From: Eledone cirrhosa
Lineage: Eukaryota
Reading direction: 5' to 3'
Assembly: GCA_964016885.1 (NCBI GenBank)
Contig: OZ024750.1
Location: 39,246,001 to 39,310,000 of the forward strand
DNA: 64,000 nucleotides
This document shows positions 199 to 64,000 of this stretch, in pieces; the stretch's first letter is position 1, and each line of letters opens with the position of its first letter. The position numbers were made by a program, and so were the translations under genes. The notes under the pieces are model-generated. The model worked only from the letters and a program-made list of their open reading frames with translations. It made no database searches and had not been told where the DNA came from.

Positions 199-296
199 TG
201 GACAAAAATAGTGTTCACATTCTTTTATCCCATTTACTATTGGCAGCACTGATGTCACCTACTAAATAATTTACTGTTACCTTTCTCTACTTCCAG

Positions 297-3200
297 ACAC
301 ACCACAGCCTGCAATAGAGATGTCCGTTCATTCTACCAGTATATCTACTACTGAACCCCAGCATAGGAATATATACCTGACGTCTTTGGATAACAATAGC
401 TCTTTGTCACCATCTCAATGTTCAACACTAGCGGCATCAACCCAGTTACCATTATCACTTACCAAGACAGCTACTGCTACTACTACTATTACTACTACTA
501 CTGTTATGCCGCAAGTTTCAGCCATCAATCCACCAGATCCGTCCACTACAACATTTGACCAGACATCTGTGTTGCCAACATCACAAAATCAGTTGTCTTC
601 AGACAAACCGAGAGATTTATTTGCTTTAAACAACACCCAGGTTCCAAATTATTTGTCATTGCCTGCCTTAACCACATCATCACCATCAGCTTCTGCATTA
701 AAAATACAATCGTCTTCCACTTCAAAAGTTCCACCAAGGCCCTGTTCTAGTCCAGAAGCTTCTGTTTCAACATTGTCTTCATCTAAATCTGATGTGTCAT
801 CGTCATCATCGTCTTCAATTTCTTCTGTTCCCTACACCTTTAAAGTAGAAAATACATTGTTACCTCAGTCAGTCTCTCAGACTCCTTCTTCTAACCAAAC
901 TGTTGCCCCTAAAGTTATTTCTCCAGTCTCATCTGGTCTCTTATTCACTTCATCTTCACAATCTTCCCCACCCAGCACGCTACCAACCACGCTCCACTCA
1001 TCATTACACAGTTCACAGTTTTGCACTACAACAACAGCAGCAACAATTACTACTACTGTTACTACCACCACTACTACTACTACTTCAAATAAATACTCCA
1101 CCCATCATGCATCACTTCCACAAATGAAATGTCAAACTACTTCATTAGCTCTCAAGGATTTGGTTCCTTGCTCATCTACAAATACTGACTCTTCACCTCT
1201 TAGTTTGTCTCCATATATGGACATGTCAACCACCAGTTCATCTTCAAACCCAAAGATATCAATACCAACTCTATCTCCAAATACTAAACTTGCTTCCCCT
1301 ACTCCAGTTCCACTTGATCCGGAGATTGCCACTCAAGATTCATCAAGAAGCATGTCGCTATTAGTTTCTAATTCAACACCAAACATGATGTCTACAGTAA
1401 CTGGTAGCAGGGTTCTTCCTTCTGCTACTAAAACCCTAGGACTTAACTCATCAACTGATACTAAGGCTTTAGTATCCAACTCCTTAACTAGTACTGAAAT
1501 TTCAACACCTATTTCTTCTTCTGCTACTGTCACTTTGGCCCCTCCCTCTTCTGCTACTAACACTTTAGCTCCTCCCTCTTCTGCTACTGTCACTTTAGCT
1601 CCTCCCTCTTCTGCTACTGTCACTTTGGCTCCTGCCTCTTCTGTTACCAACACATTGGTCCATCCTTCTGCTATTGGCACTATGGCTCCTCTTGCTACTG
1701 ATACCTTAGCACCTACCACAACCCCGTCATCCCTAGTAGCCACTGAGACTCTCACGCCAAACTCTTTACATATTATTAAGACTCAGACATCCAATATCCT
1801 TCCTCTTATTAACACTTCTGTATCTGGATTGTCTACTGCCAACATTGTTCTACCTAGTTCCTTGTTCCACACCAACACACCAGTAATCTCTCTGTCTTCT
1901 CAAACCTCAGCTTTAACTTCCAGCTTTGACACTAAAAATAGCTCCCTAGGACCTCAAACAACAACTCAAACTTCTAATTTATCTGATACTCTCACTTCTG
2001 CTGATGCAAAGATATTAACTGCTACTTCTGAAAATAATTTGATGGTTTCTTGCTCAGTTACTCCTGCTATCTCTACTAATAATCTTTCTACTCCCATTAA
2101 GAACTCCACTAAGGAATCTGCTGCTATTTCTTCATCAACTATTAATAATCTATCAGCTTATTCTTCTGATACATTATCCCATGTCTCTACATCTTTGGCT
2201 ACTCATCTTTCTACATCCAAGGGCATTATTGTTCATCCCCCAGCTATTAATACTTCTCATCTTGACATTTCCACATCTGTTAACACTATGGAACTATCAC
2301 TCCTAACCTCCAGTCCCCTTCCAACTCAAAAGGCTCCAGTTGCCAGCTCTACTCCAACTGAAAGAAATCCTACACCTATCTCTGTATCACACACTCCTAC
2401 TACCACTTCTCCTTTAAAGACATCAACTCCTACTTTCAATTCCAATTCTACATCGAACTCCTCAGTTATTAACTTGTCTTCTCATCTAGCAAGTACATCT
2501 GATGCCAAGATATTGGTTACTAACTCATCTTCATCTTCACTTAATATATCTGACTCAGTATCATTAACCTCTGGGACCATTACTTCTAGTTTGTCATCAA
2601 CAACTAAGACTTTAGCTCCCACTTCATTTTCAGATTCTAAGACATCATTCTTGTCTTCTGATCCCAAAATTCTGTCACCTAGATTGAAGACTGTTAGCCC
2701 ATGTGCTGCTATGAAGCCTTCAACAGCTAATAGCCCTGATTCAGTGAAACCCTGTACAAGTGATAGTTTAGCAACTTCATCAGATTGCATATCTCTTGAC
2801 ACCAAAACCTCAGCTCCCGACTTCACTGAAAGTCCTAAGACTTTAGCTCCTAGCTCTACAAGTAGTACCAAAACCTTGCTTCCTGTCTCTTCTGAGAGCC
2901 TTAAAAGCTTGGTTCCCAATTTAACCGATAGTTCCAAGATGTTGGCTTCTAGTTCTTCTGATAGCTGCAAGACGAAGGTGGCCACCTCTGCTGATAGCTC
3001 TGCGTTACTCTCTTCTAGCTCTACCCATGAGCCCCAAACTTCAACTGATGGTGCAGGAATTGTGGCTCACACAACTTCCGATACTACAAAGGTATCAACC
3101 CCCATCTCTGACAGTTTGAAAACATTGGATAGTAGCTTAATTGATATTTCCCAGGGTAGCAAGACGCCAGATCACAGCTCAACAGCCTTGGTTATCAGTT

Positions 3201-6200
3201 CAACAGATAGTTCTAAGGTGTTAGCTACCAGTTTGACTACTACCAATACCACTTCTATTCCACCTAAATCTCTTGATTCAATTTCTTCTGTTACAAAACC
3301 TCCAAGTGTAGTTTCATCCTCTACTCAAAAATCAGTAAAATCAAGTCTTATCCTCAAAACACCTGCTGCCAGCAGTACTTCTACCCTTAAAACACCTGCT
3401 GCCAGCAGTACTTCTACCCTTAAAACACCTGCTGCCAGCAGTACTTCTACCCTCAAAACACCTGCTGCCAGCAGTACTTCTACCCTTAAAACACCTGCTG
3501 CCAGCAGTACGTCTACCATTAACAAGCCAACTCTCAGTGACTCCTTATTACCTGTCATTGTGTTAACCCAGATGACATCATCTGCAACGTCTATAGGTAA
3601 CTTCAAAACTCAAGCTCCCACCTCTACATCTGTCACTAAAGTTCCAACCCCTACAGCAGCTTCCAACACACCAACCTCCACCTCAACTACCCCCAACAAG
3701 ACTCCAATAGAAAGCTCTACATCTGGCCCTAAAACTTCAGCATCCAGTTGTACAGCTTCCCTCAAGACATCAAATTCTAGCTCTCCAGCAGTTCCCATAA
3801 CTGAAACAGCCACCCCTAAGACAACAACATCTACCACAACAGCCACCCCTAAGACAACACCTACCACCACAGCCAGCCCTAAGACAACATCTACCACCAC
3901 AGCCACCCCTAAGACAACAACATCTACCACAACAGCCACCCCTAAGACAACACCTACCACCACAGCCACCCCTAAGACAACATCTACCACCACAGCCACC
4001 CCTAAGACAACAACATCTACCACAACAGCCACCCCTAAGACAACACCTACCACCACAGCCAGCCCTAAGACAACATCTACCACAACAGCCACCCCTAAGA
4101 CAACACCTACCACCACAGCCACCCCTAAGACAACAACACCTACCAACACAGCCACCCCTAACACAACAACACCTACCAACACAGCCACCCCTAAGACAAC
4201 AACACCTACCAACACAGCCACCCCTAAGACAAAAATACCCACAACCACAGCCACCCCTAAGACAACAACACCTACCACAACAGCCACCCCTAATACAACA
4301 ACACCTACCACAACAGCCACCCCTAAGACAACAACACCTACCACAACAGCCACCCCTAAGACAACAACACCTACCACCACAGCCACCCCTAAGACAACAA
4401 CACCTACCAACACAGCCACCCCTAAGACAACAACACCTACCAACACAGCCACCCCTAACACAACAACACCTACCAACACAGCCACCCCTAAGACAACAAC
4501 ACCTACCACCACAGCCACCCCTAAGACAACAACACCTACCACCACAGCCACCCCTAAGACAACAACACCTACCAACACAGCCACCCCTAAGACAACACCT
4601 ACCACCACAGCCACCCCTAAGACAACACCTACCACCACAGCCACCCCTAAGACAACAACACCTACCACAACAGCCACCCCTAAGACAACAACACCTACCA
4701 CCACAGCCACCCCTAAGACAACAACACCTACCAACACAGCCACCCCTAAGACAACACCTACCACCACAGCCACCCCTAAGACAACAACACCTACCACAAC
4801 AGCCACCCCTAATACAACAACACCTACCACAACAGCCACCCCTAATACAACAACACCTACCACCACAGCCACCCCTAAGACAACAACACCTACCAACACA
4901 GCCACCCCTAAGACAACAACACCCACAACCACAGCCACCCCTAAGACAACAACACCTACCACAACAGCCACCCCTAAGACAACAACACCTACCACCACAG
5001 CCACCCCTAAGACAACAACACCTACCAACACAGCCACCCCTAAGACAACAACACCTACCAACACAGCCACCCCTAACACAACAACACCTACCACAACAGC
5101 CACCCCTAAGACAACAACACCTACCACCACAGCCACCCCTAAGACAACATCTACCACCACAGCCACCCCTAACACAACAACACCTACCACCACAGCCACC
5201 CCTAAGACAACATCTACCACCACAGCCACCCCTAAGACAACAACATCTACCACCACAGCCACCCCTAAGACAGCACCTACCACCACAGCCACCCCTAAGA
5301 CAGCACCTACCACCACAGCCACCCCTAAGATAACACCTACCACCACAGCCACCCCTAATACAACACTAACCACCACAGCCACCCCTAAGATGACGCCTAC
5401 CACCACAGCCACCCCTAATACAACACTAACCACCACAGCCACCCCTAAGATGACGCCTACCACCACAGCCACCCCTAATACAACACTAACCACCACAGCC
5501 ACCCCTAATACAACACTAACCACCACAGCCACCCCTAAGACAACACCTACCATAACACCTACCACCACAGCCACCCCTAAGACAACAACACCTACCACCA
5601 CAGCCATCCCTAAGACAACACCTACCACAACAGTTACCCCTCAGATAACAAAACCTACCACCACAGCCACCCCTCAGATAACAAAACCTACCACCACAGC
5701 CACCCCTAAGATAACACCTACCACCACAGCCACCCCTAAGACAACAACACTTACCACCACAGCCACCCCTAAGACAACAACACCCACCACCACAGCTACC
5801 CCTAAGACAACAACACTTACCACCACAGCTACCCCTAAGACAACAACACCCATCACTACAGCCACCCCTAAGACAACAACACCTACCACCACAGCCACCC
5901 CTAAGACAACAACACCTACCACCACAGCCACCCCTAAGACAACACCCACCACCACAGCTACCCCTAAGACAACAATATCTACCACCACAGCAACCCCTAA
6001 GACAGCACCCATCACCATAGCCACCCCTAAGACAATACCTACCACAACACCTACCACCACAGCCACCCCTAAGACAACACCTACCACCACAGCCACCTTT
6101 AAGACAACAACACCTACCACCACAGCCACCCCTAAGACAATAATACCTACCACAACAGCCACCCCTAAGACAGCAACACCTACCACAACAGCCACCCCTA

Positions 6201-9200
6201 AGACAACAACACCTACCACCACAGCCACCCCTAAGACAACAACACTTACCACCACAGCCACCCCTAAGACAACAACACCTACCACCACAGCCACCCCTAA
6301 GACAACAACACCTACCACCACAGCCACCCCTAAGACAACAACACCCATCACTACAGCCACCCCTAAGACAACACCTACCATTACAGCCACCCCTAAGACA
6401 ACACCTACCACAACAGCCACCCTTAAGACAACAACACCTACCACAACAGCCACCCCAAATACCTCTTCACCTAGTATTATTTCTACAACAAAGTCCTTGA
6501 CATCCAAATCTACATTTCTGTCCAATATTAACACACTAGCACCTGCCTCTATAGTTATTCCCAAAACAACAGCACCCAGCTCCACCCCTAAGGCAACTGC
6601 ACCCAGCTCTACTCCTAAGGCAACAGCACCCAGCTCTACTCCTAAGGCAACAGCACCAATCTCGCCCCCTAAGGCAACAGCACCCAACTCCACCCCTACC
6701 CCTAAGACAACAGCACCCAGCTCTACCACTACCCCTAAGGCACCAGCATCCAGCTCAACCCCTAAAACATCAGCACCCACTTCTAGTACTACACCCAGCT
6801 CTACCATTAAGACATCAATAGCCAACTCTACTTCTCTTTCCAAGATACAAGCACCCAGCTCAACAACTTCTACAAAGACACCATCACCTACATCTACAAC
6901 TACCCCTAAAACACCCTCACCCACATCTACCACCAGCCTCAAGACACAAGTGCCAACATCTACAGCTACCCCCAAAGCACAAGCACCCAGTTCTACAGCC
7001 ACCCCCAAAACACAAGCACCTAGTTCTACAGCTACCCCCAAAGCACAAGCACCTAGTTCTACAGCCACCCCTAAGATGCAAACACCCAGTTCAACAACCA
7101 CCCATAAGATGCAAGCACCTAATTCTACAGCCACCCATAAAACACAAGCACCCAGTTCTACAGCCACCCCCAAGACACAAGTACCCAGTTCTACAGCCAC
7201 CCCTAAGACACAAGTACCTAGTTCTACAGCCACCCCCAAGACACAAGCACCCAGTTCTACAGCCACCCCCAAGACACAAGCACCTAGTTCTACAGCCACC
7301 CCCAAGACACAAGCACCCAGTTCTACAGCCACCCCCAAGACACAAGCACCCAGTTCTACAGCCACCCCCAAGACACAAGCACCCAGTTCTACAGCCACCC
7401 CCAAGACACAAGCACCCAGTTCTACAGCCACCCCCAAGACACAAGCACCCAGTTCTACAGCCACCCCCAAAACACAAGCACCCAGTTCTACAGCCACCCC
7501 CAAGACACAAGCACCCAGTTCAACAACCAACCCCAAGACACAGGCACCCAGTTCTACAGCCACCCCCAAGACACAAGCACCTAGTTCTACAGCCACCCCC
7601 AAAATACAGGCACCCAGTTCTACAGCCACCCCCAAGACACAAGCACCCAGTTCAACAACCACCCATAAGACACAAGCATCCAGTTCTACAGCCACCCCCA
7701 AGACACAGGCACCCAGTTCTACAGCTACCCCCAAGACACAAGCACCCAGTTCAACAACCACCCATAAGACACAAGCACCCAATTCTACAGCCACCCCCAA
7801 GACACAAGCACCCAGTTCAACAACCACCCCCAAGACACAAGCACCCAGTTCAACAACCACCCCCAAGACACAAGCACCCAGTTCAACAACCACCCCCAAG
7901 ACACAAGCACCCAGTTCAACAACCACCCATAAGGCACAAGCACCCAGTTCAACAACCACCCATAAGATACAAGCACCCAGTTCTACAGCTACCCCTAAAA
8001 CACAGGCACCCAGTTCTACAACTTCTACCAAACAAGCTAACATTCCTTCTTCAAAACCAATTCCCAGCTCTACATCTACCACAAAGAAACCAGCACTCAC
8101 CTCTTCAGCCACCCAAAATTCTTCCTCTAAGACTACATCACCCACCTCTACATCCAAGACTACAACACCCACCTCTACCACTACATCCAAAACTACAACA
8201 CACACCTCAACATCCAAGACTACAACACCCACCTCTACCACTACATCCAAAACTACAACACCCACCACTACATCCAAGACTACAACACCCACCTCTACCA
8301 CTACATCCAAGACTACATCCAAGACTACAACACCCACCTCTACCACTACATCCAAGACTACAACACCCACCTCTACCACTACATCCAAGACTACAACACC
8401 CACCTCTACCACTACATCCAAGACTACAACACCCACCACTACATCCAAGACTACAACACCCACCTCTACATCCAAGACTACAACACCCACCTCTACCTCT
8501 ACATCCAAGACTACAACACCCACCTCTACCACTACATCCAAGACTACAACACCCACCTCTACCACTACATCCAAGACTACAACACCCACCTCTACCACTA
8601 CATCCAAGACTACAACACCCACCACTACATCCAAAACTACAACACACACCTCTACATCCAAGACTACAACACCCACCTCTACCACTACATCCAAGACTAC
8701 AACACCCACCACTACATCCAAGACTACAACACCCACCTCTACATCCAAGACTACAATACCCACCTCTACATCCAAGACTACAACACCCACCTCTACATCC
8801 AAGACTACAACACCCACCTCTACCACTACATCCAAGACTACAACACCCACCTCTACCACTACATCCAAGACAACAGCACCTACTTCAACCACTACAGCTA
8901 AAACTATAGCCCCAAGTTCTACCACTACAGCTAAAATTATAGCTCCAAGTTCTACCACTACATCCATGACAACAGCACCTACTACTACTACTACTACCAC
9001 CACTACCACAGTCCCTTTCTCTAAGTCTGCAGCTTCTAAAACCACAGCCCCAAGTTCTACCACTACATCCAAGATAACAGTACCTACTTCTACCACTACA
9101 GCTAAAACTATAGCCCCTACCCCTACCATTGCTTCTAAGACCCCAGCTCCCATCTTGACATCCAAGACTACAGCTAAAACTATAGTTCCTACTTCTACTA

Positions 9201-12200
9201 CTACATCCAAGACTACAGCATCCACCTCTACCACTACTACTAAGGCAGCAGTTCCTTTCTCTAAGTCTACAGCTTCTAAAACTACAGCACATACCTCTAC
9301 CAGCCTTACCACTAGAACTTCAGCTTCTATCTCTAGCACTACATCTAAAACTACCACCATTACTAAGACACCAGTATCCTCCTCTACCAGTACTACCACT
9401 AAAACTACAGCTCCTTCCTCTAACACTTCATCTAAGACTACCACCATTGCTAAGACATCAGCACCCTCCTCTACCTCTAGCCTCAAGACTCCAGTACTGA
9501 AGATTGTCTTATCTAATGTTAAAGCAACAATGGCTACCATCACTTCTGGTGGCAAGTCAGTAGTTTCAACTTCTAAATTAGGTGTGAAAAGTTCAGTATT
9601 GAGCTCCACATCTGGCAGCAAGGCAGCAACACCGAGCACAATGTCCAATAACAAGGCACCTGAGCCTAGAGTGACAGCTGGTGTCAAAAGAAAAGCTCCC
9701 AGTCTCGTTTCTAATGCCAAGAGGCCAGCACTTAGCTCCTCTTCGAGTGTTGAGAAAAAACCTGCATCCAGCTCTACTTCTGCTCAGTCAGCTTCCAGTT
9801 GTATCAGTGATTCTCAGACATCTCTTGAATCAACTCCACCTGTGATGAGCTTAACTTCTCATTCTAAGCCTTCTTCTAGTCTTACTAATGTAGCCACCAA
9901 TTCTTCTAATAATGAAAACAAAACTCAACCTATTAGTTCTGCTATTGTTACACCTGCTCTTAGTTCTACTGTCAGTAGCAACACTCCAGCTTCTACTGGT
10001 GTTGACACTTCAGATGCTACTAGCTCTGTTATAGGTATTAATACTCCAGCTTCTAGTTCTACTGCTGATATCGACACTTCAGCTTCCAGTTCTGTCATTG
10101 ATGTTGACACTTCTGTTCTTAGTTCGACAGTCAGTGTGGACACTTCAAATGCTAGTTCAACTTCCAAGAACAGCGTTTCTTCTGGTCAGACAAGCTCTAG
10201 TCCATCTTCTCTCAACAAAAGTCCATCATCGTGTGAATTTGGTCCAAGTTCCCTCTCAGCTCCCACATCTCTCTCTGCTAGCAGATTATCTGATTCCCAA
10301 ATGCCTTGCTCTTCTAATTCAGTGATTCCTGTAACAAGTTCCTTCTCTAATATCAACAGCACATTTTCATCAATCGATTTAATATCATCACCAAACTCTG
10401 AAACTACAGAACTTGCATCCTCCACCAGTTCAAAAATGTCCACTGGTGTAGTATCCAGTCAAAATACTTCCTCACATTCTTCAAATCTGGCTTCTGAAAT
10501 GTCTGACCCTAAATCTCCAGCTCCTATTTCGTCATCTGTTCAGTCATCTTCAGACCTAGCTTCCTCATCAAATCAAGTCATAGTTGAGTCTGATTCTTCA
10601 CCTTCCCAGTCTAAATCAGACCATCACTCCTCCAACTGCACGTCTACTTTACCATCTGGTAAATCACCAACTAATACGTCTCCAGTAGAAACTAAATCAC
10701 TGACTTCATCATCTTCTACCCCTTCCTCTACTGTCTCAACCTCATCGGATTCTGTTAGTTCATCTCATTGTGCCAAAGATTTAGTTCTTTCATCGGAAGT
10801 TAAACCATCAAGCCCGTCATCAAATAATCTGATGCCATCAACTTCTGCCACCACCAACGAACCAGCCCCATCTTCAGTTCTAGCCAAAGAGTCTGTTCCA
10901 TCCTCATCTGTATCCCCTATGGAGACAGCCCCATCTTCGTCTGCTTCTTCGACGGAGCCAAAAACCACTCCAGTAGCAAGCTCTAAGGCATCAGTATCAT
11001 CTTCCACTAAAAGAACATTACCATCATCGTCATCAAGGTCTTTGTCTAGTGTCAAATTGCCTGAGCCTTCATCATCATCATCTGGTACCAAGCAACCAGG
11101 TCCATCATCATCATCGTCATCTGACACTGATATACTAGGACTTTCATCGTCATCATCATCATCTGACAAGGCCCCAACACTGTCGTCATCTAATGACATG
11201 TCACCAGCAACAGTATCACAATCAATAGAATGTAAACTTGATTCTCCATCAACAACACCGATATCTTCTACTTTTCCTCCATCTCCGTCGTCATCAACTA
11301 ATCACAGATCTCCTCCACATAGTCAGAAATTGCCATCCCCTTCTTCATCAACTGACTTTTCAGATTCTAACCTAATTGCTCCGTCATCTGATAAATCTGA
11401 ACAGCCCGCTGTCGCATCATCGGCGTCTTCTCAACCAATGTCTCTCTCAGCATCCATTGATGAGGTCTTGATGATGTCTTTGGAACTGTCATCTAATTTA
11501 GTTGAATCAACTAGTAACCAACACAGTTCTTCACATTCTGTAGAAGCAATTCACACCACATCTTCATCTTCTCTAACAGAAGATGCTCTTTTACATTCTT
11601 CATCGACAGTGCCACTACCTTCTGATCCGTCATGTTCTTCTCTAGATATTCCCCAGCAATCATCAGCAACTCCTATTTCATCATCTTCATCATCATCATT
11701 AACATGTATAGAAGCATTATCTTCAGAAGTATCTGACTCACAATCATCGACCCTAGTTCCCTGTGTCAAAGAGTCACCCAAATCACGTGACAGTGCTGCG
11801 GACTCTGCCTCTACTACTCCACCTCCTGTTTCTGCTTCTAAGAAGATGGCACAAAACACATCTGTCACTTCATCTCCTCGTCTATCTAACAAATTGCCTT
11901 CTAAGCTAATATCTTGTTCATCGGCTGAATCTTCCTCATCATCATCATCATCATCATCTCTAAACACATCTATAAGCTGTCCTCCTCTAACTGATCCAAC
12001 TCCAATACCCTCATCAGAATCATCAGATTTAGTCAGTTCTGAAAACAATAGTTCAAACATTCCAGTTTCACTCCAAGTTAGTGGCTCTCCTTATCTGAAC
12101 ATTTCTGGACCACAGACTCGCCTTAAACCTTCCCTTTGTGAAGTTGAACAAAATACTTTGGAAAGTGTGGTGAACAGTAAAACTAAAGGTGGTTTCACTG

Positions 12201-14229
12201 AGAAAATGACTAAGAATTTGGAACCTGAAAATACTAGTCAGAAAGCAGAAAAGGATACTCAACTAGCAGACACAGTTGTTAGTGTTGATCAAAATAAAGA
12301 TTTGGAAGAAATACCTGGAAATTCAGGTGAGAAGAAAAGCAGTGAAAATAAAAAAGAAATGAAAACTACTTCTTTGAATTGTGACACTCCCAAAGTAGAA
12401 CGGTTGATTTCCAAGGCTAGAAGTGACTCGAATGAAGGACAAAAGGTTAGTTGCAGTAATGTTACTAGCCGGCTATCAAATTGTAAACGTGAGGTGGCTA
12501 AGTCTTCTGGCACTGAAGTCAGCAGGTTATTAGGAGATGTTGGTAATGTTACAGTTGTCCTTCATGATATTTGTGGCAGTAAAGATGACTCATCTGCAAC
12601 AGATGATGTGAAAACTGATACGGATTTCAAATCACAGTCACAGACACCGACTGAAGATGCTGATAAAAAATTGGATGTTGAAGAGGAAGAATGTCCATTA
12701 TCATCATCAGAGTCTAAGAGTAAAATGAAAGCAGAAGAATCTGATAAAAATCTATCAAAGGTTGTTAAAACAGACTCTAAAGTGGATGTAAAGTGTGAAG
12801 AAGAGGAGGAGGAGAGTGAAGTTGGAATTTCCTACAACACTCGTTCAGAATCTGTTAAAGATGAAGACAGTTCCAATGTTTGTAAGAAGGAGAAACAAGA
12901 GCAAGTTAGCACCTGTGAAGAAGATGAATCACAGAGTTTTAATAAAAGCAGTAAATGTGAGGATCTAGCATTACAACTACAAGAAAACAGTTGCCATTCT
13001 GAAGAATCAACAGACTCTGGCAGTCGAAGGTTGCGTGGAAGACCTCGAAAGACCAGTGCTGAGACTGTCTCAACGGAACAAACGAAAAGTCAACCGTTGA
13101 ACCCTGGAAATATCATAAACTTTCGCCTTCGCCGAGACCGTCCATCTTTAAAGAATGGCAAGTGTAAGCACTGTTGCTGTAAAAAACGCTGTCAGTTGAG
13201 CTGTGTCCAGAACAAGTGTGTGGGTTGTATTTTAGATGGCAACTCACTATGCCGTTGCAATTTGAAAGAAAATTTGATAAATAACATTCAAAATATAGCT
13301 TTGTCTGTTAATACAATGTGCATGAATTGCCATGGAAAGAACAAAAGATCTGTTCGTGCTTGCAAGCGGAAGCGCTTGCCTAGCCCACAGCCAAACAAAC
13401 GACGTAATGTTCTGCAAAGTCAGGTCAAACCCTCTACTACAACAAATCAAAAATCATCCAAAAATTCTCAAAAAGTATCGAAAACAAATTTCAAAACCAA
13501 AATGTCTACAACTGCTTCTCACAAAAAACTTGCCAAATCACCTCACAAAAAAACCATAACAAAATCCCCTCCTCCTTCTAAAAAAGTAATTAGAGTTGAA
13601 TTGAAGAAAATATCTCGGGAACCCCCTAAACAAAAAGAAACCAAATGTAAATTAAAGAAAAAATTAGGGGTTGATCTATTGAAAGAAAACCCTGTTGTTT
13701 CTCTGAAGCAGATGACTTCCTTAGAGTCACTATCGGCAACTAGCCACACCAGTAAAAAGGAGGAAAATACAAAGTATGTATCAACAAGGCGTTCACTGAG
13801 AAGTCGGAAGTCTGTCGATGAAAGCACACCAGTGTTACAACACATGCGACGATCAAAGTCAGAACAGAAGCTTGATTCCAACAGTGTCAGTACACCAAAA
13901 TACCAAATTAATTTGGCACTGACACATAGGAATGATAGTGAAGTTAGTTCTAAACTTTCTCAAGACCATCATCTCAGGACAAATAGTACAAGGAGTGCAG
14001 CAGCTCAGCCATGCTGCAGTACGGCAGAAGATTGTTGTAGCACATGTGCTGACAACTTCAATAAAAAATTTGTAGATAATCGTGCTCTGAAAGAGCTGCG
14101 GCAGCGTGTTAAACTTGGACCTTTTAAATGGGACTTAGAGGAATCAGACACGGGTGGACGAGCTCACACGAACGACGAATCTAATAAATCAAATAATGCA
14201 AAGACTTGCAACACCAGTGTATCTAATAC

Positions 14230-14263
<34 letters not shown>

Positions 14264-14770
14264 TGTAGTGGTAGTAGTAGTTCCAAGGTATCGGAAAATA
14301 CCTTACAAACATCCCAGCTAACTCCCTCCTCTTCTACATCATCATCATCATCAAATGTTATGGATGATGAGCTTGTGAAAACATCCATGACCCCGCCAAT
14401 CAGGACCTACTCCAGAACACAGTCCCCACCTTCTCGGATCCGTGTTGGCCGAACATACAGTAAAGCATCAGACTATCAGGCCCTTCCCCCCGGGGTCATA
14501 CCCATTGTCGACTGTCTGCGAGCATCGTCCCGCAGTTCAGCCAGTCACCTGTGTGACATGCCCCGTGTCCACGTGGTACGAGTGGATAAAAAGGGCAACA
14601 TGTTTGAAACTCGGGAACCATATCCACTTCCCAGGACTCCAGTTGACACCGATATCAGTCGTAGTTTAATTGACGAGGAAAAAGTTTCTGGTCAAAGGTG
14701 GAAACTGCAAAGAACTAAAATGAAAACGGATGGTTATCCATTTAGTTTTAAGAAGACACGAATTCAATAA
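297..14770 (+). CDS. Giant terminal coding exon of a S/T/P/K-rich low-complexity repeat protein (>4800 aa) with AT-hook, NLS-like motifs and Cys cluster; upstream exons outside window
   Basis: Stop-free 14.45-kb ORF that includes kilobases of non-repetitive sequence. It is preceded by a polypyrimidine tract and AG (ctttctctacttccag, AG 295-296), with the frame open from 299 to the ATG at 320. AT-rich UTR-like sequence follows the TAA. Confidence 0.85.
1517..1645 (+). repeat. Coding 30-bp repeat (APPSSATVTL) x~4
   Basis: Seen in the DNA and the translation. Confidence 0.85.
3352..3520 (+). repeat. Coding 33-bp repeat (LKTPAASSTST) x5
   Basis: Seen in the DNA and the translation. Confidence 0.9.
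3805..6455 (+). repeat. Coding 24/27-bp repeat block (TATPKTT[T]PT), roughly 100 units
   Basis: The cagccacccctaagacaac core recurs and length variants keep the frame. Confidence 0.95.
6960..8020 (+). repeat. Coding 33-bp repeat block (PKTQAPSSTAT), ~32 units
   Basis: Seen in the DNA and the translation. Confidence 0.95.
8125..8880 (+). repeat. Coding 27/33-bp repeat block (SKTTTPTS[TT]T)
   Basis: Seen in the DNA and the translation. Confidence 0.9.
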
Positions 14771-18141: not shown

Positions 18142-18271
18142 ATAGTAATAAATGGAAAATATATCACTATAGCATCATATTTTATTTCGTTATATATATT
18201 TTGTCTGAAGAAATCATATATATCAAAATATATTATGTTGATATAGTGATATATTTTCCATTTATTACTAT
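18142..18271. repeat. Inverted repeat, perfect 30-bp arms with 70-nt spacer
   Basis: 18142-18171 is the reverse complement of 18242-18271. Confidence 0.85.
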
Positions 18272-22290: not shown

Positions 22291-22567
22291 TACATATGGA
22301 AATTCTGTAAATGTTTTTGTTTATATTTTTTATTAATTCCCTTCTTTCCCAACCAATTGTAAGTTCTGCCATGGTACACCGTGTTATTACAAATATTTCA
22401 CTCTGTACCATTTGTTTTAACACTGATTAAAAATATATTAAAAAAAAAATATTCATTTAACATAATAAACTTCTGAAATACATATTGAATGTTTTGACTT
22501 TCCTTACCATTTATCTCCTCTTACTGGCTTTTTGAAATGAGACTGTAACCATGTTAGGGAAGCATCT

Positions 22568-24540
22568 TTAACCCTTTACCATTTACATTACTCTATATAT
22601 ACTATTGTATTTTTGTGGTAAAGGCTTTACCTCACATAATATCCCACATAACATTTACATTACTCTATATATACTATTGTATTTTTACAGTAAAGCCTTT
22701 ACCTCACATAACATTTACATTACTCTATATATACTATTATATTTTCACAGTAAAGGCTTTACCTCACATAATATCTCACATAACATTTACATTACTCTAT
22801 ATATACTATTGTATTTTCACAGTAAAGGCTTTACCTCACATAACATTTACATTACTCTATATATACTATTATATTTTCACAGTAAAGGCTTTACCTCACA
22901 TAACATTTACATTACTCTATATATACTATTATATTTTCACAGTAAAGGCTTTACCTCACATAACATTTACATTACTCTATATATACTATTATATTTTCAC
23001 AGTAAAGGCTTTACCTCACATAAAATCTCGCATAACATTTACATTACTCTATATTTACTATTGTATTTTCACAGTAAAGGCTTTACCTCACATAATATCT
23101 CACATAACATTTACATTACTCTATATATACTATTATATTTTCACAGTAAAGGCTTTACCTCACATAAAATCTCGCATAACATTTACATTACTCTATATTT
23201 ACTATTGTATTTTCACAGTAAAGGCTTTACCTCACATAATATCTCGCATAACATTTACATTACTCTATATATACTATTATATTTTCACAGTAAAGGCTTT
23301 ACCTCACATAATATCCCACATAACATTTACATTACTCTATATATACTATTGTATTTTTACAGTAAAGCCTTTACCTCACATAACATTTACATTACTCTAT
23401 ATATACTATTATATTTTCACAGTAAAGGCTTTACCTCACATAATATCTCACATAACATTTACATTACTCTATATATACTATTGTATTTTCACAGTAAAGG
23501 CTTTACCTCACATAACATTAACATTACTCTATATATACTATTATATTTTCACAGTAAAGGCTTTACCTCACATAACATTTACATTACTCTATATATACTA
23601 TTATATTTTCACAGTAAAGGCTTTACCTCACATAAAATCTCGCATAACATTTACATTACTCTATATTTACTATTGTATTTTCACAGTAAAGGCTTTACCT
23701 CACATAACATTTACATTACTCTATATATACTATTATATTTTCACAGTAAAGGCTTTACCTCACATAAAATCTCGCATAACATTTACATTACTCTATATTT
23801 ACTATTGTATTTTCACAGTAAAGGCTTTACCTCACATAATATCTCGCATAACATTTACATTACTCTATATATACTATTATATTTTCACAGTAAAGGCTTT
23901 ACCTCACATAATATCCCACATAACATTTACATTACTCTATATATACTATTGTATTTTTACAGTAAAGCCTTTACCTCACATAACATTTACATTACTCTAT
24001 ATATACTATTGTATTGTCACAGTAAAGGCTTTACCTCACATAATATCTCACATAACATTTACATTACTCTATATATACTATTATATTTTCACAGTAAAGG
24101 CTTTACCTCACATAAAATCTCGCATAACATTTACATTACTCTATATTTACTATTGTATTTTCACAGTAAAGGCTTTACCTCACATAATATCTCGCATAAC
24201 ATTTACATTACTCTATATATACTATTATATTTTCACAGTAAAGGCTTTACCTCACATAATACCTCACATAACATTTACATTACTCTATATTTACTATTGT
24301 ATTTTCACAGTAAAGGCTTTACCTCACATAATATCTCACATAACATTTACATTACTCTATATATACTATTGTATTTTCACAGTAAAGGCTTTACCTCACA
24401 TAATATCAAATTTGAGATTTTGATTTTATTTATTTTGAGAACAATATCTTAACATCAGTATGTGGGGCCAGTTATGGCCGAATAGAAAGAGGTGAGAGAA
24501 TTCTGGCCAGATATGGCCAGTTTGAATGCTAAAGGGTTAA
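22568..24540 (+). mobile_element. piggyBac-type MITE copy A with internal 60/72-bp satellite expansion (22578-24405)
   Basis: TTAA|CCCTTTACCATTTA ... TGAATGCTAAAGGG|TTAA. The body matches the unexpanded copy at 52190-52395. Confidence 0.85.
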
Positions 24541-25092: not shown

Positions 25093-25263
25093 CTCACATT
25101 CATTCACATATACTCACACAGATTAATATATATTTATATATATGTATCACTCCATTATGTGTTACAGTCGATAGTCTGAGGCCATGCTGGGGCACCACCA
25201 CTATATATATATATATATATATATATAAAGAAGAAATTAAAAGATGGTTAGAAAAGTTCCAAG

Positions 25264-25334
25264 TATTTTATTATGCGCATTTCAAAAACAAATATCATCC
25301 AGGGACGATATTTGCGTTCTCATCAGATAAAATA
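25264..25334 (-). ncRNA. Minimal type-I hammerhead ribozyme motif (Penelope-like), minus-strand copy
   Basis: On -: tattttat CTGATGA [stem II] GAAA tgcgca TA ataaaata. Confidence 0.75.
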
Positions 25335-25438
25335 GGGAGACATGATATGAAGCTTAAAAAAGATACTTGTGAGCAAGGTAGTGTCTAATCAACATATTGC
25401 TCACAAGTGTCTTTTTTAAGCTTCATATCATGTCTCCC

Positions 25439-25509
25439 TATTTTATCTGATGAGAATGCAAATATCGTCCCAGGATGATATTTGTTTTTGAAATGCGCAT
25501 AATAAAATA
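25439..25509 (+). ncRNA. Minimal type-I hammerhead ribozyme motif (Penelope-like), plus-strand copy
   Basis: Stem I tattttat/ataaaata (8 bp), CTGATGA 25447-53, long stem II 25454-89, GAAA 25490-93, palindromic TGCGCA, predicted cleavage after A25501. Confidence 0.75.
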
Positions 25510-25587
25510 CACTGTCTAATGTGTCATTCCTTAGTTTTGATGTGATATACGGGATTAAATGTTAACAATATTTGACAGTATATATAT

Positions 25588-34489: not shown

Positions 34490-34672
34490 CTAGAGAGAAC
34501 TACTGAGAGCTTCCATTTTCTGGTTAATTTCAGCTCGTTTCTTACTTATGCCTGGCTCACTATCAATGTACGCTTGTTTATTCATTTTATTGTTTATTAA
34601 TCTCTCAGCATAGTTTATAGCCTGATTGATGAGTTCCTTGTACTGGCTATCAAGTTTCTGCAGTTCAGCAAC
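34490..34672 (-). CDS. RPN1: Ribophorin I (OST subunit 1) last coding exon (exon 10)
   Basis: CAG|VAELQKLDSQYKELINQAINYAERLINNKMNKQAYIDSEPGISKKRAEINQKMEALSSSL*, which resembles the RPN1 C-terminus. Confidence 0.9.
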   Translation of the reverse strand, partial: VAELQKLDSQYKELINQAINYAERLINNKMNKQAYIDSEPGISKKRAEINQKMEALSSSL

Positions 34673-49052: not shown

Positions 49053-49243
49053 CTAGATGGTGATAAAATAGAAGGGGAAAATAGATTTATATTTTATATA
49101 TAAGAGAGAGATAGAGATAGAGTTTTGGCAGAAGAGTCTATATGGTGATAAAATAGAAGGGAAAGATAGATTTATATGAGAGAGAGAGAGCTTTGGCAGA
49201 ATGGTCTACATGGTGGAAAAATAGAAGGGAAAATAGATTTATA

Positions 49244-49276
<33 letters not shown>

Positions 49277-51122
49277 GATGAAATGCAGTTCGGGTTTGTG
49301 TCAGGCAAAAGTACCACAGACGCTCTTTTCATTGTACGACAACTACAGGAGAAGTACCTAGCTAAAAGTAAACCCCTATACTTAGCTTTTGTCGACTTGG
49401 AGAAAGCCTTCGACAGAGTCCCCCGTTCCATTATCTGGTGGTCTCTTAGAAAACTAGGTGTTGACGAATGGCTTGTGAGAGCTATACAAGCCATGTATAA
49501 AGAAACAGTCAGTAAGGTTAGAATTAACAACGAATATAGTGAAGAGTTTAGCGTAAAAGTTGGTGTCCATCAGGGCTCTGTACTTAGCCCCCTACTATTT
49601 ATTATTGCCCTTCAGGCTATAACAGAGGAGTTCAAGACCGGCTGCCCATGGGAACTCCTATACGCAGATGATCTAACGCTCATAGCTGAATCAATGACCG
49701 AACTAGAGAAGAAATTCCAAACGTGGAAGCACGGCCTAGAATCAAAAGGCCTTAAAATTAACCTGGCTAAGACTAAAGTTCTAGTTTGTAGGAAAGAAAA
49801 TAAGGCGGCGGTCCCATCGGGGAAATGGCCATGCTCAGTGTGTAGGAAAGGCGTAGGTAGAAACTCCATTTTATGTCCCAAATGCAAAGTATGGGTGCAT
49901 AAAAGATGTAGTGGGATCACAGGTAAGCTAACTAAGAACATAGATTTTACATGTGGCCGGTGCTCTGGTGCAATAAGTAGCAGCAAGTGCCCACAAAATA
50001 CTAGCTCCTTCAACTGCGCAGAGGGTTCTATAGAAATAGTGGACAGCTTCCGTTATCTGGGTGACAAAATCAGCAGTGGGGGAGGGTGCTCTGAAAGTAC
50101 AGTAGCTAGAGTCAGAACTGGATGGAAAAAGTTCAGAGAGCTTATACCACTATTAGCCGCTAGAGGGTTCTCCCTAAAAATGAAAGGCAGGTTATACGAT
50201 GCCTGCATACGAACAGCAATGCTGCATGGCAGTGAGACCTGGGCATTGTGTGCAGAGGATATACGCAGACTAGAGAGGAACGAAGCTTGCATGCTCCGCT
50301 GGATGTGCAATAGTAATATACGTGAACGGCAAAGCATAAACGAACTAAGGAAAAAATTAGAAATAAGAGGGATCAGATGTTGTTTACTCGAGAGAAGGCT
50401 ACGTTGGTACGGTCACGTGATGCGCATGAAAGACGACAGCTGTATAACAAAGTGCAGGGCAATAAAGATAGACGGTAGCCACGGAGTAGGCAGACCCAGA
50501 AAAACATGGGACGAGCTGATAAATTCCGACCTCACACGCTTACACCTCTCCAAGACAATGTCACTGGACCGAGACCTTTGGCGGTACTCAGTAATAGAGA
50601 AGACCCGCCTTACCTAAATACAAAGTAAAAACCTACTACAGTCAGTAGGCACCTCTATCAAAACACACCCCCGTCCCACCACCTCCACCCCACCCACACC
50701 GCCCCTTTCAATGTAAAGTTATGTTGGTCCCACAACATCCAGGCCGAAACAAATGAGATCGTGTAGGTGTCACGACAAAAAACACACAGTCCACGCTGTA
50801 AATGTGGCCGTGTAGGCAACACGGTAAAAACCTCCCAGCCCCACACTGTAAATGTGGTTGGTGTTAGGAAGGGCATCCAGCTGTAGAAAACCCGCCAGAC
50901 AGTCCACGCTGTAATGTGGCCGTGTAGGCAACACGGTAAAAACCTCCCAGCCCCACACTGTAAATGTGGTTGGTGTTAGGAAGGGCATCCAACTGTAGAA
51001 AACCCGCCAGACAGTCCTATGCGAGCAAGACAACCACTCTTGCCTCAAGTGGGAAAACCCCCGTCCAAACCCATGCAAGCGTGGAACACGGACGCTAAAC
51101 CTGATGATGATGATGATGATGA
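49277..51122 (+). mobile_element. 5'-truncated RTE-clade LINE: RT (QFGF, FVDLEKAFD, GVHQG, YADD) + PHD-like finger + 3'UTR + (GAT)n tail
   Basis: Uninterrupted ORF to 50617 with RT motifs. Inserted in (TA)n within RPN1 intron 4. Confidence 0.93.
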
Positions 51123-61197: not shown

Positions 61198-63054
61198 AAT
61201 ATATATACCAAACACCATTAATAACAACAAATGATATTTTACATAAAATTACTCATTTCAAACTAAATAAGCCACCATCAAAACTGATTTATTTACAAAA
61301 TCTACAAATAAGGATTATTGTCAAAATGACCAGCTAGACAATGGTTCCAAATGTCTAGCTGGTATCTGGGAGGTTCGATTTCTCGTAGCTGCTGATGCCA
61401 ACTACCGTCTTTAAGTGTCTTACCCCTATTTCCTAGCATCTCTACACACCCTCCCACTATATTAAATCTATATACAATGTGGATGGGTCTTGCCCATTGA
61501 CACCATGAGAACCAGAATCTGAAACAATGCACTCAATACACGTATATATCTACATTTATTAAGTTAATGGCTCTTATACGACTAATTGTTTTTCTTTCTT
61601 TAGAGTCATTCGTTTAACACACACACACATATATGTGTGTGTGTGTGTGTGTGTTATACACACATAATATATCGCTTTAAGCGAAAAACAGAGTCAACGC
61701 TCTTAATATAGATGAAAGCTATGAAAAGCACATGGTTTAATCTATAAAGTGTTCCTTTTGTTTTATAGAAAAAAGGGGAAAAAAAACTGCTTACGAATCA
61801 ATTATCATATCGGAAGTGGTTTTATACTGCACGCCCGACATTGTCGATATATTTCACACCGATTGTTATATTGAAATTATAACTGACGAACTCATCAAAT
61901 CAATAAGACCGGCTCTATTTCCGATAAATAACTGAATCTATCTTCTAAATAATTATTAGAAATAATTTTAATAGAATTGTAAATGGAAGAGGGTGTGGTG
62001 GGGTAGAATTAATTTAACGTAATATTTTTCAAACTATAAAACAGTTACCTCCCTTCTTTCATTAACGTGTCGTTTAAAAAACAACGTTGTGTAATAAAAT
62101 TCCGCTTCACATTTCCCTTTTCATTCGGTTTATCAACATTAAAACACATCCAACGATAAAAGTTGATTAAATAAATACTACATTTATACTCAGTAGTCAT
62201 TTAATTGACTCCATTTATGTATTAATTGCGAACTAAGTGAAAATAAATAATTTCTATATCATTTTACGTTGTTAAATGCCGGTAGGGTTCCATGACACTC
62301 GGAGGTCAACAAGGATAAGCAAGCAAGCTTCTGCAGCAATATTCCATCTATTCTGGAACTAATTGTTTTGCATTGTACTCATGATTTATGTCCTTATAGT
62401 GGCTGACACCGTCTACCCAGAGGTGCCACTGTGGAGGTTTCTTGTAAAACAAGCATGCCTTGCCTCTATACTTAGCTTTTGAGAGTTCTGCCAGCTTTCG
62501 TCTAAATATTCAGCCTTATCTACAAATTATATAGTTTCAACCAATTACTTCTCAGACAACGTGTTAACGGCCTTTTAAAAGAATCATTATTAATTTAGTC
62601 TAAAATTTATAGTGATAATTAGGAAAAGCAAGAAGGTGTATGGATAGTTCAGTAAAAACAAAAATCTCACTAGCCATTTCTGTGATGTAATGGCACCGGC
62701 GTCTTCCTTACACACACACAGATATATATATAGGAAAAGAAATTGAAAATGGAACCTTTTAAGAATATTTATTTATTTTACCGATTTCACAGTTCTTATG
62801 GTTTTCAAAAGTAAAATTGAGATGAAGGGTTTGTGTTTCTGTTATGGTTTGTTTCGTGTATCACTGACGAAGGACTATTTTTATCATATGTAACTCATGT
62901 GCAACCACGCAGTACTCTTCTTTCTTCTCATTTATATATATATATATATAGAGAAAATTGAGGTTGGTAATGGCACATGGAATATATAAGAGACAGAATA
63001 CTTTTTTGTGAAAAAACATAATTTTATAAGGTAAGGAAATAATAAAGGGTATAA

Positions 63055-63102
63055 AAAATGACCGGTTTCGATGGGTCTGCAAAAGCCATCTTTTCAAATG
63101 TT
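63055..63102 (-). ncRNA. Hammerhead-like motif with U3-A8 core variant, minus copy
   Basis: On -: aacat TTGAAAA gatgg..ccatc GAAA ccgg TC atttt. Confidence 0.5.
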
Positions 63103-63374
63103 GATTAATATTAAGAAAAATTAATAATACGAAGAGTTAAAATTTGAGACTTGAAAATTCAAGTATAAAATTCATTGTGGGATTTCATAGCAGTTTTCAT
63201 CTAGGTAGCAACAACAGGTTGACTGCTGTGTCCCTTTCTGGTAGTGAATGAGAAGTTATTTGGGGTGTGGGTTATTTTATAAAGGTCAGATTTAGCAATA
63301 GCCAGCTGCTGGTCAGTGAGGGGGTGGAAGCAATATACACACACATACCTTCATCCACACATACATACACATAC

Positions 63375-63415
<41 letters not shown>

Positions 63416-63478
63416 CACACATACATACACACACACATACATATACATACACACATACACACACATATATATACACAT

Positions 63479-63533
<55 letters not shown>

Positions 63534-63572
63534 TATATATACATACACATACATCCAGATACACACATACAT

Positions 63573-63654
<82 letters not shown>

Positions 63655-63931
63655 CCCCACACATACATACACACATATATATATATACATACACACATAC
63701 AAACATACACACACACACACACACACATATATATACACACATACACACACATATATATACACACACACACACACACACATATGCATATATATATATATAT
63801 ACACATACGCATACATCCAGATACCCACATACATACACACACACACACACACACAATACATACATCCACATGCACACACATACTCACACACACACACACA
63901 CACATACATACAATTTTTCTTAATATTAATC

Positions 63932-63979
63932 AACATTTGAAAAGATGGCTTTTGCAGACCCATCGAAACCGGTCATTTT
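63932..63979 (+). ncRNA. Hammerhead-like motif with U3-A8 core variant, plus copy
   Basis: TTGAAAA 63937-43, stem II gatgg/ccatc, GAAA 63965-68, palindromic CCGG, GTC triplet. Stem I is weak. Confidence 0.5.
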
Positions 63980-64000
63980 TTATACCCTTTATTATTTCCT

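Follow-up and report, generated by a model that had tools for sequence, protein, structure and literature searches.

Insertions of Penelope-like elements (PLEs) are described as carrying an inverted 5′-truncated copy and a tail of 30-40 bp at one end (PMC8557442; PMC3846280). The head-to-head arrangement is the commonest inverted form, target duplication is optional, and self-priming has been proposed as the cause (PMC8557442; PMC3846280); a target-site duplication is also absent in some copies (PMC3846280). PLEs favour AT-rich or microsatellite targets (PMC8557442; PMC11167929; PMC3846280). The PLE protein nicks and extends both strands, with two start sites setting the tail; the template is uncleaved RNA, and ribozyme cleavage is protein-assisted (PMC11167929). 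PLE hammerheads have a small palindromic helix III and low, dimer-dependent activity, and in Schistosoma mansoni they occur as opposite-strand pairs 100-700 bp apart, mostly in truncated copies (PMC4209133). Penelope inverted repeats have been linked to siRNA (PMC3681739), and Penelope and palindromic Harbinger repeats to editing (PMC5625713). Hammerhead pairs on opposite strands and siRNAs arising from inverted repeats of Penelope have both been published already. For Octopus vulgaris, 31 recently active Penelope-like families are reported in a paper whose main text does not mention ribozymes (PMC13282606). No described octopus Penelope hammerhead was found in a literature search whose scope took in few subscription papers; the supplements of PMC4209133 may hold such a type.

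The hairpin analyzed here lies in a 64-kb stretch of animal DNA in which microsatellites and tandem arrays abound; "the window" denotes that whole stretch. The hairpin very probably represents two truncated copies of one high-copy repeat end, joined head to head as a PLE insertion stub, and a switch function is unlikely. What is observed comprises the geometry, the family, the tail on one side, a loop derived from the element, and a hammerhead core that is conserved; the putative PLE membership rests on motif and architecture.

Structure of the locus

Two copies make up the locus, one of 160-170 nt on the minus strand and one of 115 nt on the plus strand, and they meet at 25396/25397. The parts are listed below, with the type of evidence in brackets.

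25201..25227, no strand: (TA)n run adjoining the outer end of the left copy (sequence)
25230..25262, minus strand: one-sided 3′ extension, or tail, of the left copy (family contig depth, loose ends)
25263..25376, minus strand: left arm, part of the longer 5′-truncated copy (repeat geometry, family contigs)
25377..25396, minus strand: hairpin loop, formed by upstream element sequence that belongs to the left copy (family contigs)
25397..25511, plus strand: right arm, the shorter inverted 5′-truncated copy, without tail (geometry, family contigs)

By sequence comparison, the hairpin arms (25263-25376 and 25397-25510, 114 nt each) are complementary at 111 of 114 positions, with mismatches at 25301/25472, 25316/25457, and 25364/25409, and they enclose a 20-nt loop at 25377-25396. 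These are the 114-bp arms, three mismatches, and 20-nt loop given in the initial annotation of this DNA. The span reported there, 25263..25510, is correct for the arms but not for the full element: with the tail and the loop counted as parts of the left copy, it reaches from 25239, or at least from 25230, to 25511. Folding of 25240-25530 yields -196.8 kcal/mol (z = -35), a value equalled by 0 of 200 shuffles.

A high-copy repeat family

Positions 25230-25575 were compared at 80% likeness with the contigs of four of the nine sequencing runs listed (X1, X3, X5, and X6), none of them recorded as RNA. Matching contigs number 1560 in X1 and 1802 in X3, both from one sample, and 10 and 1 in X5 and X6, which derive from other organisms. 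The summed depth at 25266-77 is about 0.9-1.0 million, which is not a copy number; since single listed contigs have depths of about 2-90, we infer thousands of family copies or more. The family is dispersed and multicopy, with variable 5′ truncation.

The tail is found on the left only. It comprises 24 nt common to the main family (to 25239) and at least 33 nt in a sub-family, and its outer end is a lower bound. Loose ends at 25239 occur in 30-31 contigs, and depth goes on outside the left arm, falling in successive tail bins from 0.77-0.80 to 0.23-0.27 and 0.05 of the peak. In all, 99 and 108 contigs run past an end of the compared stretch, and depth is present only at the 25230 end. The right copy has no counterpart to the 25230-25262 extension and stops at 25511, where its A agrees with the family majority. 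Farther right, the flank at 25554-25575 has no contig cover in any of the four runs.

The loop also belongs to the element. One contig (run X3, record 13) spans 25266-25397, the depth is 1,900-5,400 in the bins covering 25362-25397, and a main-family loose end aligned by eye matches 25364-25393 at 21 of 30 letters. An 8-mer of the loop (25382-25389) recurs at 25513-25520, 2 nt into the right flank, with a chance probability of about 0.002. A reading of the loop as host DNA, with this 8-mer as a target-site duplication, was ruled out by the family contigs, which identify the loop as element sequence; the 8-mer may instead have helped the new DNA anneal to its target. No target-site duplication was found around the unit, where only (TA)n matches and 6-mers occur, none abutting both ends. 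The (TA)n run at 25201..25227 is likely the AT-rich insertion site, though its inner part may be element sequence.

Past 25361, the depth drops about 60-fold. Together with the very high abundance of a short stretch and the failure to find an ORF in the frames searched, this drop could point to an element of the same origin and geometry that is short and non-autonomous, a retrozyme- or SINE-like hammerhead element borrowing PLE enzymes, and animal retrozymes have been proposed as PLE derivatives (bioRxiv 10.64898/2026.07.22.740005). The drop, however, is due to a sequence difference, with loose ends showing that the family continues both upstream and downstream. Moreover, the locus contains no tandem unit, whereas retrozymes are defined as head-to-tail tandems (PMC7229834; bioRxiv 10.64898/2026.07.22.740005). 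We consider such an element unlikely and retain the truncated PLE insertion as the preferred reading.

Head-to-head joining recurs in the family at other breakpoints. The 12 listed joints, each represented by a single contig of depth 4-17, comprise one deletion, two strand changes of unclear direction, and nine antisense-to-sense joints. Six of the nine lie in or beside the self-complementary stem II and may be stem-length variants; the other three are clear, and one of these (25359 to 25414) contains palindromic filler. Palindromic fillers are seen in two joints of the family. The loose ends at 25361 and 25412 mark a short self-complementary stretch just upstream of the conserved part. By analogy with the 5′ palindromes reported for rotifer pLTRs (PMC3846280), a built-in hairpin at this position could seed fold-back.

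Hammerhead motifs

A type I hammerhead descriptor, scanned over both strands of the 64-kb window, matches at two places only, one per arm and facing outward, with CUGAUGA at +25447 in the right arm and -25326 in the left.

25439..25509, plus strand: type I hammerhead motif of the right copy (descriptor and fold), predicted cut after 25501; stem I 25439-46/25502-09, CUGAUGA 25447-53, stem II 25454-89, GAAA 25490-93, UGCGCA 25494-99, UA 25500-01
25264..25334, minus strand: type I hammerhead motif of the left copy (descriptor and fold), predicted cut after 25272

Each arm contains an 8-bp all-A-U stem I, CUGAUGA, a 16-position stem II, GAAA, UGCGCA, and UA, which confirms the type I core that had been annotated in both (8-bp stem I, long stem II, and the same four motifs). 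The core residues C3 U4 G5 A6 N7 G8 A9 ... G12 A13 A14 A15.1 ... U16.1 H17 are all present, as are stems I and II, and the motifs are open at stem I as type I requires. Folded in isolation, the motif forms the expected stems I and II, at about -17 kcal/mol. Stem III has 2 bp as a monomer and is computed to form an 8-bp duplex of -10.5 kcal/mol as a dimer. With UGCGCA in both arms, the assignment to PLE-type hammerheads with a palindromic stem III was well judged: the motif and its palindromic helix III would fit a type I PLE ribozyme, the catalysis of which is putative.

The first pair of stem II is G10.1-U11.1 in both arms, the usual G-C closing pair being absent, and the fourth position is a U-U or C-U mismatch. 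G10.1-C11.1 is rare in the family: position 10.1 is A in 43-47% of the depth, and position 11.1 is C in 1.4%. A dedicated hammerhead search, as initially proposed, gives a divided answer: the descriptor finds the two motifs and the Rfam models find neither. At the gathering score, Rfam returns only a tRNA-like match for the whole window, and no hammerhead is among the 18 sub-threshold matches up to E = 10. The miss may be due to the length of stem II and to a stem III that is minimal.

Variation among copies

The 26 listed family differences, each reaching 3% in a run, reduce to 21 distinct variants. No variable site falls within the 34 positions made up of 12 invariant core residues, the 6-nt palindrome, and 16 stem I positions, vs 14 of 36 positions in stem II and its loop (Fisher P = 2.7e-5, which is only a guide because the copies are related and variants are listed from 3% in a run). 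N7 is the only core position to vary (U to C, 16%). The motif therefore looks selected in the parent element.

Within stem II, eight of the 11 paired-site variants keep the pair as A-U, G-U, or G-C, though in an unphased listing that carries no demonstrated two-sided compensation. Among transitions, eight of nine keep the pair vs 60% expected (P = 0.07; P = 0.017 for the eight variants above 1%), a weak and likewise unphased signal. A/G variants that face U, read on the ribozyme strand, account for six of the 11. These would be explained if, in what looks like a cephalopod genome, ADAR edited the RNA of the long stem II and reverse transcription wrote the edits into DNA, but pairing selection by itself would give the same pattern, and we regard write-back editing as quite improbable. 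If it were true, RNA editing would feed mutations back into a transposon family and could account for the hypervariability of PLE hammerheads, for which there is no explanation so far, and fold-back stubs such as this one would form a large, self-made pool of substrate for editing and siRNA.

The two arms share two minority alleles, at which the family differs in 85-96%, and depart privately from the family majority at three sites in the left arm and one in the right. This combination fits one insertion event, templated by a single lineage, with drift thereafter. The arms differ at four sites if 25262/25511 is included, and at each of them one arm keeps the family majority base. This pattern bears on whether the hairpin might be a fold-back artefact of sequencing or assembly. 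None of the listed contigs from the four runs spans the locus's own junctions, and the best runs contain 0.43 of the sampled words. An artefact would not, however, be expected to place a majority base in one arm at every difference, nor to produce unequal arms with a one-sided tail and loop, as in real PLE insertions. The chance of an artefact appears negligible, and we treat the hairpin as a genuine insertion.

Genomic setting

The main features of the surrounding window are as follows.

266-14770, plus strand: open frame of 4834 codons, very rich in S/T/P and containing long peptide repeats; its C-terminal part is charged and includes Cys
34490-54606, minus strand: Ribophorin I gene, with five frames matching Ribophorin I (Pfam)
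63034-63122 and 63912-64000: second inverted repeat, a perfect 89-bp repeat cut by the window end, with a 789-nt spacer that contains (TA)/(CA) microsatellite

The last 922 residues of the 4834-codon frame have no Pfam match. What we take, by likeness, to be the last ribophorin I exon ends near 34490; its only Pfam match is weak and unrelated. The hairpin had been placed between two convergent genes. Their convergence holds, but they are not close: the stops are 10.5 kb (plus-strand ORF) and 9 kb (likely ribophorin I exon) away, with tandem arrays between. Long tandem arrays (36-bp) occur in the Ribophorin I introns, with a related one at about 22560-24420. The short repeats of the window presumably resemble octopus SINEs. 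An AT-rich hairpin of about 130 nt at 18142-18271 (-52 kcal/mol, z = -10.8) has no hammerhead match and is possibly a small fold-back element.

Each arm of the 63034-64000 repeat also carries an outward-facing hammerhead-like motif, with a U3-A8 core variant and a CCGG palindrome. The descriptor was widened after this pair had been sighted, and in its widened form gives 0 matches in each of 30 shuffled windows. Stem I of the motif is weak, and no hammerhead fold forms on its own. The repeat is only suggestive of a second head-to-head PLE pair, unrelated in sequence; two outward-facing pairs in 64 kb would fit an ordinary by-product of insertion.

No Penelope ORF had been noted nearby, and this is upheld in the frames covered: beyond 14770 there are 173 frames of at least 62 aa, and the 107 searched with Pfam, after removal of 66 low-complexity or long repeat frames, gave no GIY-YIG match. 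The single RT match in the window (49157-50614) lies within the Ribophorin I gene span, together with a PHD-like match, in a frame that we take to be a LINE. Neither the window-frame search nor pattern scans of metagenome and viral contigs found an RT/GIY-YIG parent ORF. Motif pattern scans of the metagenome contigs gave 0 matches, twice; one viral contig matched the motif (L001), which was judged by eye to be chance, stems I and II being unpaired. The copy search suggested earlier for a parent Penelope has thus delivered a high-copy family and, in the contigs scanned, no parent ORF.

Predicted folding of the transcript

The hairpin had been interpreted as a self-masking switch between long double-stranded RNA and a ribozyme. 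Part of that picture stands. The plus-strand RNA is predicted to fold at -202.4 kcal/mol, consistent with the proposed long double-stranded transcript, and as the motifs lie on opposite strands with the antisense arm made first, a ribozyme is indeed preceded by its own antisense. The switch is unsupported: the energy is -113.2 kcal/mol with the hammerhead enforced, so that the hairpin beats the ribozyme fold by about 89 kcal/mol, and stem I pairs form with a probability of about 1e-58. Every plus-strand prefix, as it grows, already pairs the right arm back, in folds that represent equilibrium and not kinetics. Because the motifs are on opposite strands, one transcript contains one motif and no tandem dimer. 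The modeled RNA shows masking but no switching, with no pair of comparable folds and no trigger, and the motif would be freed only in an RNA starting inside the hairpin.

That the transcribed hairpin toggles between double-stranded RNA and active ribozyme, controlling the convergent genes, seems to us highly improbable. Both arms do have an intact core and are 97% complementary, and heavy editing, as in the hyper-editing of octopus and lizard Penelope (PMC5625713), could loosen the duplex. Editing would presumably strike the core adenosines too, however, and to the folding cost, the equilibrium zipping of every prefix, and the single motif per transcript must be added the distance to the nearest gene stops (9-10.5 kb) and private arm changes that resemble neutral decay. 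A by-product of insertion is also a form already described, one that recurs at other breakpoints and, with another motif, in the window.

A co-opted hairpin-RNA locus yielding siRNAs that silence the parent family could draw on the 114-bp duplex and on Drosophila siRNAs, which have been mapped to inverted segments within rearranged Penelope copies (PMC3681739). This copy is nevertheless without sign of selection and sits among tandem arrays far from gene ends, and since other head-to-head copies exist, any such role would be a diffuse property of the family. We judge co-option of this locus very unlikely, and again favor an insertion stub without switch function.

Proposed origin

The locus has the hallmarks of PLE insertion, namely a hammerhead with palindromic helix III, an adjacent inverted 5′-truncated copy, and a tail on one end only. 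In the proposed pathway, the endonuclease of the element would nick the AT-rich site, and uncleaved terminal-repeat (pLTR) RNA would be reverse-transcribed from the outer start site to give the 160-170 nt left copy with its tail. That both arms keep sequence 3′ of the cut site fits an uncleaved template. The inverted 115-nt copy could then arise by extension of the other-strand nick from the inner start site, to which we give slightly better than an even chance; alternatively, with slightly less than an even chance, the first copy may fold back and self-prime.

The hammerhead presumably acts for the parent element, probably by dimerising through UGCGCA and with the assistance of protein. Within the stub, the motif is predicted to be buried in duplex, and RNA from chance read-through would be a passive ADAR or Dicer substrate.

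Comparison with known systems

As it stands, the locus adds one more truncated PLE insertion of described shape and is of little consequence. It does record a hammerhead family that Rfam misses, in which stem II is unusually long and its closing pair non-canonical, and offers a clean, recent case for weighing two-strand priming against a fold-back origin of inverted PLE copies.

Compared with repeat-derived substrates of long double-stranded RNA (PMC3681739; PMC5625713), the lone palindromic repeat would likewise fold without a partner copy. It also resembles the non-LTR retrozymes (PMC7229834; bioRxiv 10.64898/2026.07.22.740005) in being short, non-coding, high-copy, and type I in an animal genome. 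Retrozymes, however, are head-to-tail tandems giving circular RNAs, whereas the present locus is head to head and its motifs cannot dimerise in cis.

The hammerheads agree with those described for S. mansoni PLEs (PMC4209133) in their type I core, palindromic helix III, and occurrence as opposite-strand pairs. They differ from the PLE hammerheads described in that source in the length of stem II (about 15-16 pairs vs 6-8) and stem I (8 bp vs 2-5), in that positions 9 and 10.1 have no additional base between them, and in the 10.1-11.1 pair, which is G-U or A-U in most copies instead of G-C. The cleavage triplet here is AUA, a slower natural triplet (PMC1636495). The closest match overall is to EN+ PLE insertion units, which share the head-to-head geometry, the unequal truncation, and the AT-rich or microsatellite neighborhood; the tail here is about 24-33+ nt, and the copies, unlike those units, are too short to retain any ORF.
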